Source: a virus (Duplodnaviria > Heunggongvirae > Uroviricota > Caudoviricetes). From it: DNA of 7,174 nt. Shown here one piece after another: positions 1,310 through 7,174 of the stretch (its first letter is position 1; every line of letters starts with the position of its first letter). Below the pieces are notes generated by a model, which did not search any database, was not told the DNA's origin, and saw nothing but the letters and a program-made list of their open reading frames with translations. The translations under genes and the position numbers were made by a program. Location of the stretch: IMG/VR virus record IMGVR_UViG_2700989544_000016; one strand, written 5' to 3'.

Positions 1310-1785
1310 TATCGCGTCCTCAACAATGAATTTTGTGATGCGGTGCCTAGTGCCTCCAGGTGACGTTAACCAGTTAACAATTAACGCCGGATACAGAGAA
1401 TCCACCCATAACACTGTTTTTGGTTTTAACTGTTCCGCGTGCGCTGAGCCGCATTCACCGCATCACAAAATTCACTTTTAAAAAAGGGCGGCAGAGCAGT
1501 CACGGAGTAAAACTGATACTGCCAAATGTCACCAGAATATTGATAACAGAGGGCGTTGTAGCGGGGTTGTCACTTAAGCGTATGGTCAACCTGACAACCC
1601 GGTGTCCTCAACTGGGGAAGGAATAACCCCGCCATACTTACCGCCGCGCCATTTCGCGGATTGCCACAACCGGAAGCGCACGTTCGAAGAAATCTAACGA
1701 CAAGCCTTCTAAGGGAAAGAGCTTCGCCGTACGCTTTCGCGTTGTGTGCCTGCTTTTAACCACGTCAGGCGAGGTGGTTTCCGTC

Positions 1786-2012: not shown

Positions 2013-2459
2013 ATGGACCGGGATGATATTCTTGACAGGGTTTTATATGGTTATTTTCTTGAACAACTATTCTCTGTAGCGACTGGTCGTCTCGATAAAC
2101 TTCTCTCAGTGGTGAGTATTATCCTCGGTTCATCTGTCATTGGTGGATTTATTCCTGAAGTTTCTGGAGTTCTCATTGTTGTGATAGCAACCGTTCAAAC
2201 GATTTACGGATTCGGACAAAAGTCAGGTAACGCAATGAGAAAATCCGCAGAATATCTGCAGCTTTATGATGATGCAGAAAAATATTCCGATTCGGAATTG
2301 AAAATGCAGTTAAAGCTCCTGGAAAAAACAGATGATAATATTTGGTCGTCGCTTAAAGATATCGCAATCTTAAAAACCCAGATCAAAATAGGAATCTCCG
2401 TAGAACAACAAGAGAAACTGTCTGCAAAATCCAAATTGATGCGATTCCTTTGTGGTTAG
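2013..2459 (+). CDS. Two-transmembrane-helix protein (148 aa); candidate superinfection-exclusion / abortive-infection protein, in the position SieB occupies in Rac
   Basis: ATG 2013 with AGGTGA (2001-2006) 6 nt upstream. Two adjacent hydrophobic segments (LLSVVSIILGSSVIGGFI and VSGVLIVVIATVQTIYGF) followed by a charged C-terminal domain. Visibly AT-rich relative to flanks. Opposite strand to the surrounding early-left genes. Confidence 0.6.
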   Translation: MDRDDILDRVLYGYFLEQLFSVATGRLDKLLSVVSIILGSSVIGGFIPEVSGVLIVVIATVQTIYGFGQKSGNAMRKSAEYLQLYDDAEKYSDSELKMQLKLLEKTDDNIWSSLKDIAILKTQIKIGISVEQQEKLSAKSKLMRFLCG

Positions 2460-2972: not shown

Positions 2973-3260
2973 TTAAGGTGTTACAGGGAACTGTCGGCGG
3001 GCGTGAACTACGTTAACAATTTCAATGCCTGAAATTGTCACGCGGTACAGAATGATGTAATTGGGGTGAGCTACAATTTCACGCAAACCAGGCACTCTGT
3101 CGCTTGGCGGGTATAAATACGGATGTTCAGATAATGGCAGGACGCAAGTCCTTAAGCGTTTCCACAAACGTTCTGCCGCATCTATGTCAAAACGTGCAAT
3201 ATAGCTGGTTATATTATCTAGGTCGGCATCTGCGCTTTCGAGCCATAAAACCGGTAACAT
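2973..3260 (-). CDS. parE: Type II toxin, RelE/ParE superfamily (ParE-like), 95 aa
   Basis: Track ORF 2973..3260. The sequence MLPVLWLESADADLDNITSYIARFDIDAAERLWKRL...REIVAHPNYIILYRVTISGIEIVNVVHARRQF matches the conserved layout of ParE/RelE toxins. The start abuts the antitoxin stop. Confidence 0.85.
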   Translation of the reverse strand: MLPVLWLESADADLDNITSYIARFDIDAAERLWKRLRTCVLPLSEHPYLYPPSDRVPGLREIVAHPNYIILYRVTISGIEIVNVVHARRQFPVTP

Positions 3261-3452
3261 TTACTGTTTGCTCCGTTCCTTGCGCATGTTAGCAAAGCGT
3301 TCAGCCATTCTGCGTTCAACTTCGTCATGGGGAATGGCTGGACGTGGATCAGCAAGGCTTGCGGCCACTTTTGCACGCAGCCATTCGTTATAACTATTTT
3401 CTTGCTCGACGGTTTCAAATTCAGAAACCATTGGTGAAAGGGCCGTGTTCAT
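3261..3452 (-). CDS. paaA: Small antitoxin (63 aa) cognate to the ParE-like toxin, PaaA2-like
   Basis: Sits immediately upstream of the toxin and is adjacent to it. Size, order and charged C-terminal half fit PaaA-type antitoxins of three-component paaR-paaA-parE modules (from memory of E. coli O157 prophages). GAGG lies 9 nt upstream of the ATG at plus 3450-3452. Overlaps the regulator gene end by 32 nt. Confidence 0.7.
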   Translation of the reverse strand: MNTALSPMVSEFETVEQENSYNEWLRAKVAASLADPRPAIPHDEVERRMAERFANMRKERSKQ

Positions 3453-3882
3453 GGTGAACCTCGTCTTGTAAGTGCTGGTAATCCTGCCTAGGAACTTTTT
3501 GTTGTGCTGCTAGCCACTTTGCAACTATACGATCCATTGTCTCTTTTTTCTCTTTCATATCTTTAAGCATTTGCTGTTGCTCTTCCTCTGGAAATGCCTC
3601 AAATGTTTGAAGTAGTTCCTTTTGCGTAGGGGTTATTTTTAATATATCCTGTGCCCTGTCCTTATTTTCTTCATTTAATGGTAAGAAAAACCAATACTGA
3701 GGAAATCCAGTCACATCAGATAGTTTATCTAGGTTGGCTGCTGTAGGGCTTGAGATGCCACAAGCCCACCTTTGGACGGATTGTTGAGCAATACCAATTC
3801 TGCGCGCAAGTTCTGCTTGGCTCCAGCCTTTTGCCAATAGAAGCATCTTAATTCTAAGAGCACTAATTTCGAGTACGCCCAT
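3421..3882 (-). CDS. paaR: HTH_XRE transcriptional regulator (153 aa), PaaR-like / DicA-like, paralogous to the adjacent repressor
   Basis: N-terminal helix-turn-helix (SQAELARRIGIAQQSVQRWACG). The central segment ITPTQKELLQTFEAFPEEEQQQMLKDMKEKKETMDRIVAKWLAAQ is clearly homologous to the C-terminus of the neighbouring repressor. No LexA-type peptidase domain. Confidence 0.8.
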   Translation of the reverse strand: MGVLEISALRIKMLLLAKGWSQAELARRIGIAQQSVQRWACGISSPTAANLDKLSDVTGFPQYWFFLPLNEENKDRAQDILKITPTQKELLQTFEAFPEEEQQQMLKDMKEKKETMDRIVAKWLAAQQKVPRQDYQHLQDEVHHEHGPFTNGF

Positions 3883-3912: not shown

Positions 3913-4284
3913 TCAGGCTCGGCGACCCTGCCGCGCCAACCAACGTGCAACAAGATCTTCCATTGCCTCTTTTTTGTTTCTTAGCTCTTTTATGATTTCC
4001 TGCTGCTCAGCGTCAGGAAAAGCACTAAATATTTGCAACAATTCCAATTGGTTAGGCGTTAATGCCATAGTTCTTGATGACGGAGATTCTGTTGTATCTT
4101 CAGGTTCCATATCAAGATACCCCCCAGGCATCCCATATGTTTGCTCAATACGTCTAGCTGCCTTTTCGCCAAACGTAGCTTTACCGCTCATTAACTGAGA
4201 TAAGTAACTTTTCTCTTTAGGCGGCAAAGTCCTGTCTTTGAACCACTCTTTGAGGCGTAAACGCCGAATCTCTTTTGTTTCCAT
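3913..4284 (-). CDS. Prophage repressor (123 aa), DicA/RacR-like, lacking an S24 peptidase domain
   Basis: Sits at the divergent promoter region opposite the cro-like gene. N-terminal phage-CI-type HTH (KEKSYLSQLMSGKATFGEKAARRIEQTYGMPGGYLD). C-terminal LTPNQLELLQIFSAFPDAEQQEIIKELRNKKEAMEDLVARWLARQ resembles my recollection of DicA. No SD before the ATG, consistent with a leaderless transcript. Confidence 0.8.
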   Translation of the reverse strand: METKEIRRLRLKEWFKDRTLPPKEKSYLSQLMSGKATFGEKAARRIEQTYGMPGGYLDMEPEDTTESPSSRTMALTPNQLELLQIFSAFPDAEQQEIIKELRNKKEAMEDLVARWLARQGRRA

Positions 4285-4386: not shown

Positions 4387-4668
4387 ATGACGCTAAAGGA
4401 ATTCATCAAATCATTAAAAACTGGAGAAGCAAAAAAATTTGCGACCAATCTTGGTGTGTCTCCGTCTTTCTTGTCCCAAATGGCATCTGGAACTTCACCT
4501 GTGTCTCCTGTTCGTGCGTTGATGATAGAAGCAGAAACTGGGGGACATGTTACAAGACGAGAATTGAGACCTAATGACTGGGAGCTTATATGGCCCGAAT
4601 ACACGGGAATCACGTCCCCTTCACGTCACAAATATGAACTTAACACCAAAAAGGCTGATGGAGGTTGA
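4387..4668 (+). CDS. Cro-like HTH protein (YdaS-type), 93 aa
   Basis: Divergent from the repressor. The N-terminal sequence KKFATNLGVSPSFLSQMASG reads as an HTH. Track ORF 4387..4668. Weak RBS. Confidence 0.7.
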   Translation: MTLKEFIKSLKTGEAKKFATNLGVSPSFLSQMASGTSPVSPVRALMIEAETGGHVTRRELRPNDWELIWPEYTGITSPSRHKYELNTKKADGG

Positions 4669-4671
4669 TTC

Positions 4672-5097
4672 ATGAAAATCAAGCATGAGCACATCCGCAT
4701 GGCGATCAATGCTTGGGCCTATCCGGACGGTGAGAAAGTTCCTGCAGCTGAAATAGCCCGGACTTATTTCGAACTGGGGATGACGTTCCCTGAACTGTAC
4801 GACGATACTCATCCAGGCGCTCTGGGTCTTAATACCCAGAAGATTTTCCGCTGGGTAAAGAAAGATACTCCTGATGCCGTTGAAAAAATGCAGGCTCTGT
4901 TACCAGCTATCGAAAAAGCAATGCCGCCTCTGCTGGTGGCCCGAATGCGCAGCCACAGTTCCGCTTATTTTCGGGAGTTGGTAGAGACGAAGGAACGGCT
5001 GGTGAAAGATATTGATGATTTCGTTGCATCAGCGATCGTTCTGTTCGATCAGATGAATCGTGGTGGCCCGGCAGGAAACACTCTGGCTGTGCATTAA
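4672..5097 (+). CDS. YdaT-like protein (141 aa), probable functional analogue of CII
   Basis: ATG 4672 with a strong GGAGG (4660-4664, 7-nt spacing), 3 nt after the cro-like stop. Position after cro, and the MKIKHEHI... start, match my recollection of YdaT-family proteins; unverified. Confidence 0.55.
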   Translation: MKIKHEHIRMAINAWAYPDGEKVPAAEIARTYFELGMTFPELYDDTHPGALGLNTQKIFRWVKKDTPDAVEKMQALLPAIEKAMPPLLVARMRSHSSAYFRELVETKERLVKDIDDFVASAIVLFDQMNRGGPAGNTLAVH

Positions 5098-5110: not shown

Positions 5111-5620
5111 ATGAGTAATGACAAAAAATTGACACTGAGCGTTTACGAAAACAGTCCGCACATCTGGCGTGGCGGTTTATCTGATGTGGAGCTGGCAGAG
5201 TGGTTGATACATAAAGCTAATGCGCTGCTCTGGCGTTTGTCAGCCAGAGAACAGCGCAAGGAAACCAGAATAAAGCTGGCTGATGCAGAAGCGTGTGCCG
5301 GGCTTATTGAGGATTATACAAATCTTGGTATTTCTTCAGCAGAGAGTGATCCCATTCAGCCTCTGAGCAGGGAGTCAATCCAGCACGCTGGTTGTATGGC
5401 ACATCTTGTAACTGCTCGTCAACATGAGGTGGGTATTGGATCACTTCCGGTGGGATATTCGATGATTCCAGAGCTGGTTGAAGCAAGAAAATCAGTTCAG
5501 AAAAAGAGAGATGACGCACTTCAATTATTGAGAGAGCACTATGGCGCGATACCAGAATGCGAACAGCGTCGATACCCTGAAGGTTATGAATGGATGCAGT
5601 CTCTTTTTGAAGTTCGCTAA
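5111..5620 (+). CDS. Hypothetical protein (169 aa), unrecognised, between the CII-like gene and the replication gene
   Basis: ATG 5111 lies 13 nt after the previous stop, with a weak RBS. The track ORF 5060..5620 begins at a GTG overlapping the upstream gene. Composition is coding-like. No motif recognised. Confidence 0.55.
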   Translation: MSNDKKLTLSVYENSPHIWRGGLSDVELAEWLIHKANALLWRLSAREQRKETRIKLADAEACAGLIEDYTNLGISSAESDPIQPLSRESIQHAGCMAHLVTARQHEVGIGSLPVGYSMIPELVEARKSVQKKRDDALQLLREHYGAIPECEQRRYPEGYEWMQSLFEVR

Positions 5621-5837
5621 TCAATATGTCGAGACGAAGGTATGTTTCGGCGCGCAGCCAGGCTCTGTAATCCGGGAGCATTTCGGGGCTGTTACACCAG
5701 CGGTTTGTTGCTGCAACATTTAATACATGAGCCTGATAAAGGCTTTTCAAAAAATACATGTCGAACCTCCTCTGGTTCTGTCGATTGGGAACCACAGATT
5801 ATATCCGGAGGAAGGTTCGGCACCAGATGAGGTAGCC

Positions 5838-6149
5838 ATGCGTGATTACGCAAAAGTTTCTCCGCGATTCTGGCTGGGAGAAACGGGGAGAGAACTTAGA
5901 AAGGCGGGTGCAGAAGCGCAAGTTGTTGCTTTTTACCTGATGACATCCCCTCACGCAAATATGCTGGGTTTGTATTACCTGCCAGTTTTATACCTTGCTC
6001 ATGAAACCGGGCTTGGTCTGGAAGGGGCTTCAAAGGGGCTTCAAAGGGGCTTAAAAGGGCTGTTGAAGCTGGTTTTTGTAGCTATGACCATGATGCAGAG
6101 ATGGTCTGGGTCCATGAAATGGCAGCCTGGCAGGTTGGGGAAACGTTGA
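5838..6149 (+). CDS. Replication initiator (lambda O-equivalent, YdaU-like), N-terminal part; the frame is broken inside the 11-bp repeat at 6022-6065 (frameshift or assembly error)
   Basis: Frame-3 ORF. Likely start is ATG 5838 (GAGG 5 nt upstream, MRDYAKVSPRFWLGETGRELRKAG...); the alternative ATG 5727 is in frame but has no RBS. After ...LAHETGLGLEGASKGL the conserved-looking reading continues in frame 2, not frame 3. Confidence 0.6.
   Translation: MRDYAKVSPRFWLGETGRELRKAGAEAQVVAFYLMTSPHANMLGLYYLPVLYLAHETGLGLEGASKGLQRGLKGLLKLVFVAMTMMQRWSGSMKWQPGRLGKR
6022..6065. repeat. Iteron-like 11-bp tandem repeat cluster 1 (AAGGGGCTTCA x2, AAGGGGCTTAA, degenerate AAGGGCTGTTG)
   Basis: Direct reading of the sequence: units at 6022-6032, 6033-6043 and 6044-6054, with a degenerate unit at 6055-6065. 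One helical turn per unit. Confidence 0.7.
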
Positions 6150-6670
6150 AGCCTGGCGATAACCGTTGTGCAGGTGTCAGGAATGAGTATGCATCATTAC
6201 CTGAAAACGCTTTTCTGTCAGTGTTTTACGACAGATATAAAACGGATTTCCATCTGGATGTGAGGCGGAATAATAGCCGAAATTCGGTAAGGGGCTTCGA
6301 AGGGGCTTTTAAGGGGCTTCGAAGCCAAGAACAGGAACAGGAGCAGGAGAAAGAACAGGAACAGGACAAAAACACTATGGTTCATGGCAAAAAAAACACC
6401 ACGAACCAGGCAGGGGATGTTCAGACCGTCAATCCTGGTCAGCCAGCAGGCACGACACCGGAAGCCGATTCAGCGTATGCGCTGAAAGCCGATTCGGGCG
6501 CTGTGCAGCAGGTGATGACCGCAGGGTCGGAGCAATCACACCAACTGCAGCAGCCTGAAGCCGATTCCGCCATTCAGCGGGAAGCCGATCGGGTAGTCCC
6601 GGAAAGCACCGGGCAGTCTGTGGGACGAGTGGATTATCCGGATGTGTTCGAACAGGTCTGGCGGGAATAC
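6101..6670 (+). CDS. Replication initiator, C-terminal part in the shifted frame, truncated by the assembly gap
   Basis: Frame 2 is open from 6005 to the gap and encodes ...KRAVEAGFCSYDHDAEMVWVHEMAAWQVGETLKPGDNRCAGVRNEYASLPENAFLSVFYDRYKTDFHLDVRR... plus a QEQEQEQEKEQEQDK linker. Deleting one 11-bp repeat unit joins it in frame to the upstream part. Confidence 0.6.
6289..6326. repeat. Iteron-like 11-bp tandem repeat cluster 2 (AAGGGGCTTCG, AAGGGGCTTTT, AAGGGGCTTCG) with flanking palindromes; candidate origin core
   Basis: Units at 6289-6299, 6300-6310 and 6311-6321. Palindromes CCGAAATTCGG (6277-6287) and GGCTTCGAAGCC (6315-6326). The 33 bp are in frame, encoding RGFEGAFKGLRS. Confidence 0.65.
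6329..6364. repeat. Imperfect hexanucleotide repeat (GAACAG)n encoding a Q/E-rich linker, followed by an A-rich tract
   Basis: GAACAG GAACAG GAGCAG GAGAAA GAACAG GAACAG, then ACAAAAACACTATGGTTCATGGCAAAAAAAACACC (6366-6400). Confidence 0.6.
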
Positions 6671-6781
6671 NNNNNNNNNNNNNNNNNNNNNNNNNNNNNN
6701 NNNNNNNNNNNNNNNNNNNNNNNNNNNNNNNNNNNNNNNNNNNNNNNNNNNNNNNNNNNNNNNNNNNNNNNNNNNNNNNNN
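6671..6781. other. Assembly gap (111 N)
   Basis: A run of n characters. True length and sequence are unknown, so frames cannot be carried across it. Confidence 0.95.
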
Positions 6782-6782
6782 A

Positions 6783-7174
6783 TGCTCGTTTGCGAATTAT
6801 CAGGTGCAGAACGACGGGCAAAAATACGCGCTGAGCCAGGCCAAATCCATAGCTGACGAACTGATGACCGGGTGCACGAATTTTGTGTTCAGCGGTAAAA
6901 CCGGCACCGGGAAAAATCACCTTGCAGCGGCGATGGGTAACCGGCTGATGGCGAAGGGGCGCAGCGTGATTATCGTCACCGTGTCTGATGTCATGAGCGT
7001 GTTGCATGACAGCTACGACAACGGCAAATCCGGGGAAAAATTTTTACAGGAGCTTTGCAGTGTTGATTTGCTGGTCCTGGATGAAATAGGCGTTCAGCGG
7101 GAGACGAAAAACGAGCAGGTGGTATTACACCAGATAATTGATCGCCGGACAGCATCACTGTGCAGTGTCGGGAT
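6783..7174 (+). CDS. dnaC: DnaC-like helicase loader (AAA+ ATPase), internal fragment; start lost in or before the gap, end beyond the window
   Basis: Frame-3 translation CSFANYQVQNDGQKYALSQAK...NFVFSGKTGTGKNHLAAAMGNRLMAKGRSVIIVTVSDVMSVLHDSYDNGKSGEKFLQELCSVDLLVLDEIGVQRETKNEQVVLHQIIDRRTAS. It carries a Walker A motif (GKTGTGKN) and a Walker B motif (DLLVLDEIG), and is colinear with E. coli DnaC as I recall it. Confidence 0.85.

Follow-up and report, generated by a model that had tools for sequence, protein, structure and literature searches.

The window, by which we mean the whole 7,174-nucleotide stretch of DNA that was analysed, comes from an E. coli prophage of the lambdoid, Qin/Rac-like type and covers its immunity-replication region. 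Two genes of the window converge on opposite strands between the CII-like gene and the replication initiator, and are referred to here as FWD and REV. The features relevant to this work are as follows.

1486-1537, minus strand: DicF sRNA (Rfam RF00039, 69.3 bits)
2013-2459, plus strand: ORF of 148 aa (phrog_6315), oriented opposite to its neighbours
2973-3260, minus strand: ParE-family toxin (PF05016)
3261-3452, minus strand: PaaA2/RelB-type antitoxin (PF21217, NF050103)
3421-3882 and 3913-4284, minus strand: two adjacent DicA-like regulators with a common C-terminal domain (phrog_5736)
4387-4668, plus strand: YdaS/Cro-like gene
4672-5097, plus strand: YdaT_toxin/CII-like gene directly upstream of FWD (PF06254, phrog_163)
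5111-5620, plus strand: FWD gene, ATG at 5111, TAA ending at 5620, 169 aa, beginning MSNDKKLTLSVYENSPHIWRGGLSDVELAEWL
5111-5303, plus strand: FWD-only region, the N-terminal 'partner' domain, with the motif SPHIWxGGLsDxELAxWLxxKANA
5304-5620, both strands: 317-bp overlap, very likely dual-coding, in which FWD codon positions 1/2/3 face REV positions 1/3/2
5304-5759, minus strand: REV gene, 151 aa plus stop, with its conserved start at ATG 5759 and not at GTG 5795
5760-5825, minus strand: portable leader of REV, conserved from E. coli to Serratia and present as a single copy in the window
5766-5771, minus strand: Shine-Dalgarno (SD) sequence AGGAGG, 6 nt before ATG 5759
5798-5803, minus strand: -10-like box TATAAT, a candidate REV promoter element identified from the alignment, between the two arms of the leader
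5808-5819, minus strand: anti-SD arm CGAACCTTCCTC, complementary to the SD/start region
5838-6982, plus strand: O-like (DnaD-like) replication initiator, frameshifted (phrog_1701/25210; RefSeq 'DNA-binding protein, frameshifted')

Several observations concern the surroundings of this gene pair. A dicB-like ORF adjoins the DicF sRNA (1486-1537 and 1332-1472, minus strand), and an STnc100-like match in the same region is sub-threshold (33.9 bits versus a gathering score of 47). Similarity of the 2013-2459 ORF to the SLATT domain is weak (NF033632, E = 0.011). The ParE/PaaA2 toxin-antitoxin pair (2973-3452) lies directly downstream of the repressor gene, and an HTH_3 domain is clear only in the first of the two DicA-like regulators (3421-3882). 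The O-like initiator is split over two frames (ORFs 5727-6149 and 6101-6856) and includes a masked run of 111 N (6671-6781), which makes the prophage probably defective in replication; ydaT is also broken up by an IS3 element in OkiPb01713, the genome that matches best. The DNA of the 169-aa ORF was found in 457 out of 5,426 complete E. coli genomes, with at least 99% identity in 452 of these. Rfam gave no match within the FWD/REV cassette.

A reading of this DNA from sequence alone had placed a well-formed 169-aa ORF at 5111-5620 between the CII-like gene and the initiator. This placement is exact, and both the homologues and the coding signature of the ORF exceed what is expected by chance. 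FWD is oriented in the same direction as the early operon (cro-like/YdaT-like/O-like), starting 13 nt after the stop of the YdaT/CII-like gene and ending 217 nt before the O-like start (5838). Its interpretation as an extra accessory gene in the cII-O slot is likewise borne out: it is real and non-core, and searches of Pfam, NCBIfam, PADLOC and PHROG found no match to a conserved core phage gene of known function. The description of the protein as unrecognised holds for Pfam, NCBIfam and PADLOC (PADLOC-DB 2.0, E <= 1), none of which contains a family for it, but not for PHROG, where phrog_8304 matches over the full length (residues 1-169 versus profile positions 1-169, 397.7 bits). Moreover, FWD had already been called in the original EDL933 annotation (AAG55469.1/UniProt Q8X4I3, 'unknown protein encoded by cryptic prophage CP-933M') and is also called by several GenBank submissions. 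Homologues of 148-192 aa, down to ~35-50% identity, are present in E. coli, Salmonella and Serratia. Searches with FWD and with REV each reached ~50% identity in E. coli and Salmonella, and a profile search extended this to ~35-45% in Serratia and others, whereas neither FWD nor REV had a tblastn match in 50,697 phage records that include phi80. The 'Rha family' names within the FWD cluster were traced to mis-clustered YdaT fragments and dropped as a lead. At 17-19 kDa, the products of FWD and REV are both acidic and soluble (computed GRAVY of -0.25 and -0.49). The AlphaFold2 (AF2) model of FWD is helical and of low confidence (pLDDT 55.6), too poor for a fold search, and its C-terminal extension could therefore be a weakly constrained tail.

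On the opposite strand, RefSeq/PGAP annotates REV alone (WP_001364549.1, 'ECs1072 family phage-associated protein'). The NCBIfam model NF033230 matches REV (105.7 bits, E = 2.1e-30, curated cutoff 70) and not FWD, for which NCBIfam has no match, and hence the RefSeq family name belongs to the strand opposite FWD. The antisense ORF 5304..5795 raised by the sequence-only reading is thus a real gene, but one whose conserved start shortens it to 5304..5759. The O157:H7 reference annotations have picked opposite strands, EDL933 the forward ORF and Sakai now the reverse: the current Sakai record (NC_002695.2, 19361-19816 of our extracted locus) lists only REV, now tagged ECs_5703, and no longer contains the tag ECs_1072. 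An AF2 model of REV built from 8 sequences is all-helical and compact (pLDDT 88.7, pTM 0.85), and a structure search with it gave no match; REV also lacks a Pfam domain and any PADLOC-DB 2.0 defence HMM at E <= 1. A direct hmmscan of REV against phrog_5286 is weak (E = 0.016). HHalign comparison of the REV family with SfIV gp36, an unannotated ST64B ORF and the corresponding protein of locus L123, the last of which scores 112 bits against phrog_5286, gave a probability of 98.7% (E = 1.6e-16) over 136 columns, i.e. the full length. These results place REV as a compact all-helical protein of the phrog_5286/ECs1072 superfamily, with homologues that match over the full length in SfIV, ST64B and Klebsiella phages. 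An exhaustive profile search of 1.84 billion proteins recovered only 24 REV-family representatives, none of them informative, and a profile scan of genome contigs with the REV alignment returned no confirmed relative. REV is intact in all diverged lineages examined except L051, which carries a nonsense codon at W34.

Which strand codes became the key question, since a real antisense gene had been named as the outcome that would overturn the forward reading. To address it we compared ~15 diverged loci at the DNA level, drawn from prophages of E. coli, Salmonella and Serratia. The window (E. coli) has both ORFs intact, as do L033, L049 and L050 from the same species, the Salmonella loci L038, L039/40, L045-48 and L053, and Serratia fonticola (L052). 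The distance from the FWD start to the REV start is 645-655 nt in every locus having both start codons, and 628 nt in L051. In the FWD-only region (5111-5303), divergence at forward codon positions 1, 2 and 3 is ~0.35/0.25/0.55, and in the REV-only region (5621-5759) the reverse frame gives ~0.35/0.24/0.58, both of which are ordinary coding signatures. Within the overlap (5304-5620) divergence is flat (~0.38/0.40/0.40) and well under the free-wobble rate of the flanks (~0.6), leaving no free wobble position. Comparison of L041, a lineage in which FWD has been lost, with every other lineage shows a single-gene REV pattern over the same stretch (0.50/0.42/0.68).

Selection on each frame was then estimated with OLGenie-like site classes, where a ratio below 1 indicates purifying selection on the tested frame. 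As a lone close pair was not significant under strong transition bias, and therefore not decisive, we pooled 5 phylogenetically independent close pairs and complemented them with a frame-identity test. With kappa = 1 the forward test gave an NN/NS of 0.37 (0.24-0.56) and the reverse test an NN/SN of 0.38 (0.23-0.61); with an upper-bound kappa of 3.7 these became about 0.57 (0.36-0.90, P = 0.0095) and about 0.59 (0.36-0.93, P = 0.013), respectively. Simulations with selection on one frame are asymmetric (~0.2 for the selected frame versus 0.7-1.0 for the other), and predict an SN/NS of ~4 or ~0.25 for a single gene, versus an observed value of 0.96 (0.64-1.47). In pairs that include L041 the forward test is ~1.0 and the reverse test 0.5-0.7.

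Resampling of the sequences leads in the same direction. When REV is resampled synonymously, the forward frame stays free of stops with a probability of 0.002-0.07 in most lineages (0.17 in L038, 0 in L043), and in the reciprocal experiment the reverse frame stays open with a probability of 0.0025-0.049. The forward frame of L041 contains 5 stops, versus a null mean of 5.2. Given the REV proteins alone, forward-frame identity is 0.24-0.47 versus a null of 0.12-0.21 (z = 3.6-7.3), while for L041 pairs it is 0.11-0.16 versus 0.12-0.15 (z = -0.9 to 1.0). Given the FWD proteins alone, reverse-frame identity is 0.29-0.53 versus a null of 0.14-0.20 (z = 4.2-8.4). Conservation of each frame is thus 2-2.5 times that imposed by the other protein on its own (z = 3.6-8.4), and L041, reverting to a single-gene pattern, calibrates the null.

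From these comparisons both ORFs very likely encode proteins and share a 317-bp overlap subject to dual constraint, so that the forward and antisense ORFs, which had been posed as alternatives, would both be genes according to the codon-position, OLGenie-like and frame-identity tests. The two single-gene readings are disfavoured by the same tests, and to unequal degrees. That REV alone is a gene, with the 169-aa ORF a shadow held open by REV codon constraints, is what the PGAP call would imply; REV has in addition a curated HMM, a strong SD and a confident fold, and FWD is broken in several lineages. This reading nevertheless leaves the forward coding signature of 5111-5303 and the homology of FWD to stand-alone partner proteins (see below) unaccounted for, and it predicts ~1.5-5.7 forward stops and identities within the null range, as opposed to the 0 internal stops and the identities observed. 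A genuine shadow frame is seen in L041, and we regard the REV-only reading as improbable. More improbable still is the converse, FWD as the only gene and the antisense ORF as its shadow. It has on its side the original EDL933 annotation, the GenBank submissions that call FWD and the co-directionality of FWD with the operon, and has to contend with the reverse-frame coding signature of 5621-5759, the conserved SD and leader of REV, a REV fold predicted at a pLDDT of 88.7, the full-length relatives of REV from SfIV, ST64B and Klebsiella phages, a reverse frame that stands far above the FWD-only null, and the persistence of REV in L041 without FWD.

Either gene can be lost on its own. Frameshifts disrupt FWD in L037 and in two independent assemblies, L043/44, and the gene is absent from L041/42. 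In NZ_CP027331 a TTT to TT deletion at 5142-5144 shifts the FWD frame after 11 codons and leads to a stop after 31 aa, yet REV is kept intact. Three more complete E. coli genomes share the same 648-nt match length and so presumably the same deletion, which makes at least 4 such genomes (three of them by this criterion), and FWD is therefore dispensable in nature. With FWD broken or lost in some lineages and REV carrying a nonsense codon in L051, the two genes are not strictly interdependent.

REV is preceded in all lineages by a leader of ~66-75 nt with the pattern TGGTGCCGAACCTCCT...TAnnnT...AACAGAACCnAAGGAGGTTCGACATG. In a 13-sequence alignment the segment GGAGGTTCGAC(A/G)TG is invariant, with single-base exceptions in L051 and L043. 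RNAalifold predicts a 14-pair stem between the upstream arm and the SD/start region, in which 96.7% of cells are paired versus ~40% for slid controls; the stem has 2 compensatory pairs, and several of its G.U pairs fit REV-sense RNA only. The -10-like box varies to TGnTAGCCT in Salmonella and to TATATT in Serratia. The anti-SD arm may be part either of the mRNA, where it would act in translational sequestration, or of the promoter. A consensus scan of the cassette returned no sigma-70 promoter and no relevant terminator, with none between the genes; at the REV leader it reported no promoter because a -35 match is lacking. The leader has no Rfam family. An exact-pattern scan of IMG/VR found it in 73 contigs, where it precedes at least 5 unrelated families of cargo ORFs (145-157 aa, 92-97 aa, 88 aa and 70-72 aa), including REV-type genes, a second family (151-155 aa) and several small ORFs.

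All of the 145-157-aa leader cargos examined have a convergent antisense ORF. These partners are mostly 125-178 aa long with an overlap of 190-320 nt (102 aa and 137 nt in L123), and their N-termini carry the FWD motif x-I-x-x-G-x-L-[ST]-x-x-E-L-x-x-W-L. In contig L062 the cargo scores 67 bits against phrog_5286 and the partner 94.9 bits against phrog_8304. The second, distantly related family shares this architecture, and one of its pairs sits in the same ydaT-O slot of the sequenced phage PP818812, where both members (gp12/gp13) are annotated. HHalign matched the family-2 partners to short partner proteins from SfIV, ST64B (sb50) and L123 at a probability of 94.4%, versus 0.1% for profile cross-controls. 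The family-2 overlap evolves mainly under the cargo frame, and the degree of dual constraint thus differs between families. In Salmonella Minnesota (L041/L042) there are tandem leader-plus-cargo cassettes, a REV-type gene followed by a family-2 gene, the family-2 cassette replacing the FWD 5' region.

The pairs of SfIV and ST64B have partners of just 68-85 aa and overlaps of only 29 and 71 nt, from which it follows that FWD consists of an N-terminal partner domain plus a C-terminal extension. Consistent with this, HHalign aligned FWD residues 13-61 with the short partners (the SfIV 68-aa ORF, ST64B sb50 and L123; probability 95.7%, E = 8.6e-9). On this homology evidence FWD comprises a ~60-aa partner domain that lies outside the overlap and a ~105-aa extension that in the ECs1072 lineage overprints the 3' half of REV, an extension that, once overprinted, appears to have come under selection. 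The REV-type ORF of ST64B (144 aa; NC_004313, 2501-2935, plus strand) is unannotated, and lies antisense between sb50 and the holin gene of the late operon.

The earlier picture of a lone insertion in the cII-O slot does not survive these comparisons: FWD is half of a mobile two-gene module that also sits at other prophage positions. The E. coli, Salmonella and Serratia loci with both ORFs intact represent at least three genomic contexts, and the cassette changes prophage slots as a unit. In E. coli and Serratia FWD (or its partner counterpart) belongs to the pR-type early operon, in Salmonella to the ASH/ExoVIII early operon, in ST64B to the Q-dependent late operon, and in SfIV and L043/44 to the cI operon, downstream of a cI-type repressor; because of the last of these contexts, FWD cannot universally be a lytic-phase gene. 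In loci with gene calls FWD or the partner runs with the neighbouring operon genes, and REV is always antisense with its own leader. ORF strands at the leader loci mostly agree, the ORFs flanking the leader being on the partner strand and those on the other flank mixed.

This arrangement corresponds to that of a noncontiguous operon, defined as an opposite-orientation gene nested among co-directional operon genes (Saenz-Lahoya 2019, as cited in PMC11087260). REV lies antisense between the YdaT-like/FWD and O-like genes, and the same orientation rule applies in the Salmonella, Serratia and family-2 loci. We propose that FWD would be expressed from the early pR-type transcript (cro-like, YdaT-like, FWD, O-like) and REV from a promoter of its own within the leader. 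Reciprocal expression would be expected from the head-on collision of the two transcription units over ~650 bp, and is suggested by the geometry shared with the noncontiguous operons Tha/Ith and Tai/Ati; it could be brought about by RNA polymerase collision and/or duplex RNA, such that REV would be favoured when the operon is repressed and FWD when it is derepressed. Our main reading is thus that two convergent protein-coding genes sharing their 3' halves form an accessory cassette of temperate enterobacterial phages with probably reciprocal expression, to which we assign a probability of roughly 0.55.

The principal competitor accepts that both ORFs are translated and takes them for unrelated neighbours, the overlap being a tolerated by-product of FWD C-terminal read-through with no regulatory coupling. 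We think this unlikely, although it has far more to recommend it than either single-gene reading: FWD homologues range from 148 to 192 aa through their C-terminal length and the AF2 confidence of FWD is low, relatives with short overlaps exist, the family-2 overlap is dominated by the cargo frame, and either gene can be lost alone. Against a by-product stand the forward frame in the overlap, which is far above its null and has motifs common to E. coli and Serratia, and the finding that NN is below NS. The two gene types also stay paired over very distant families and many insertion sites, which argues for a joint function.

What that joint function might be is a matter of speculation. FWD and REV could be antagonists, for example a function in exclusion or toxicity expressed in the lysogen and its lytic-phase antidote, although the cI-operon contexts, and the fact that each gene has been lost independently, speak against effector/antidote pairing as a strict and universal rule. 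Type I and type II toxin-antitoxin systems were considered and rejected, as the products are acidic and soluble, have no TA domain in Pfam or NCBIfam, and are encoded convergently rather than co-transcribed. Taken at its most ambitious, and only as a tentative suggestion that we would ourselves bet against, FWD/REV and its sister families might represent widespread, unrecognised prophage switch modules, in which a lysogen-expressed effector, acting in exclusion, abortive infection or toxicity, and its antidote are encoded on opposite DNA strands, with their expression mutually exclusive and the genes inseparable by recombination. The leader would then serve as a portable expression or riboregulatory cassette, its SD/start sequestered by the upstream arm, that drives moron genes against the flow of the phage operon.

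Taken together, FWD and REV appear to constitute a deeply conserved and partly overprinted convergent antisense pair in a noncontiguous-operon arrangement, half of which is hidden by the RefSeq annotation. Most candidates for long antisense dual-coding in bacteria and phages are young ORFs supported by expression data, which is why such coding is still disputed. The present pair offers evidence of a comparative kind: two old families with private regions, 317 bp shared across genera, and one lineage in which a partner has been lost. It also exemplifies a systematic annotation loss, with RefSeq keeping one strand in ~450 complete E. coli genomes, the O157:H7 reference strains included. If the pair proves to be an effector and antidote or a lysogeny/lysis switch, the noncontiguous-operon principle would extend to lambdoid phages of Enterobacteriaceae, and a new protein fold would join the prophage accessory functions.

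Among known systems, a parallel in position is found in lambda itself. The sequence-only reading took its CII-like gene to be followed directly by the initiator, a statement that needs qualification: the interval between cII and O contains the leftward oop RNA together with the promoter pO. REV resembles oop in being a leftward unit between cII and O, but it encodes a conserved 151-aa soluble protein instead of a short RNA. A second parallel is bsrG/SR4, a convergent type I toxin-antitoxin locus with 3'-overlapping transcripts, although in contrast to bsrG-type toxins neither FWD nor REV has a small hydrophobic product. As convergent units with 3'-overlapping transcripts (as in bsrG/SR4), or as a leftward cII-O unit (as in oop), the two genes would be expected to give duplex RNA and interference. 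REV and FWD are members or relatives of phrog_5286/NF033230 and phrog_8304/phrog_37051, respectively; all four families are labelled 'unknown function', and their entries hold no record of overlapping convergent pairing.

Long antisense overlapping pairs have been described in EHEC (pop/ompA, asa, ano and laoB; PMC7103648, PMC6294744, PMC5960689, PMC5810103) and in the P. aeruginosa phage Fc02 (gene 10/olg1; PMC9936078). As in FWD/REV, the proteins are encoded on opposite strands, one part has probably been overprinted, and annotation pipelines keep only one of the two. The EHEC cases are mostly young, taxonomically restricted ORFs inside an older gene and are supported mainly by expression data, whereas FWD/REV has private coding regions, deep homologues, an overlap conserved across genera and a loss-of-partner control, i.e. 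evidence from sequence rather than from expression.

In arrangement, the closest analogues are two noncontiguous operons, Tha/Ith in S. aureus phage 80alpha (PMC11087260) and TaiEcA/AtiEcA in E. coli phage phi80 (PMC11364771), where head-on transcription prevents an immunity gene and its inhibitor from being expressed together. Homology to the phi80 pair was examined and rejected, HHalign against TaiEcA (orf63) and AtiEcA (orf64) giving probabilities of only 0.2% and 0.1%, and FWD and REV contain no HEPN or other Pfam domain. Tai and Ati of phi80 are divergent genes with a 20-nt 5' overlap, in contrast to the convergent FWD and REV with their 317 bp of shared coding sequence. Common to all three systems are an antisense accessory gene within a phage operon, a partner that is co-directional with that operon, and a pair that travels together; a promoter belonging to the antisense gene and reciprocal expression through head-on transcription would, in FWD/REV, be further shared features.
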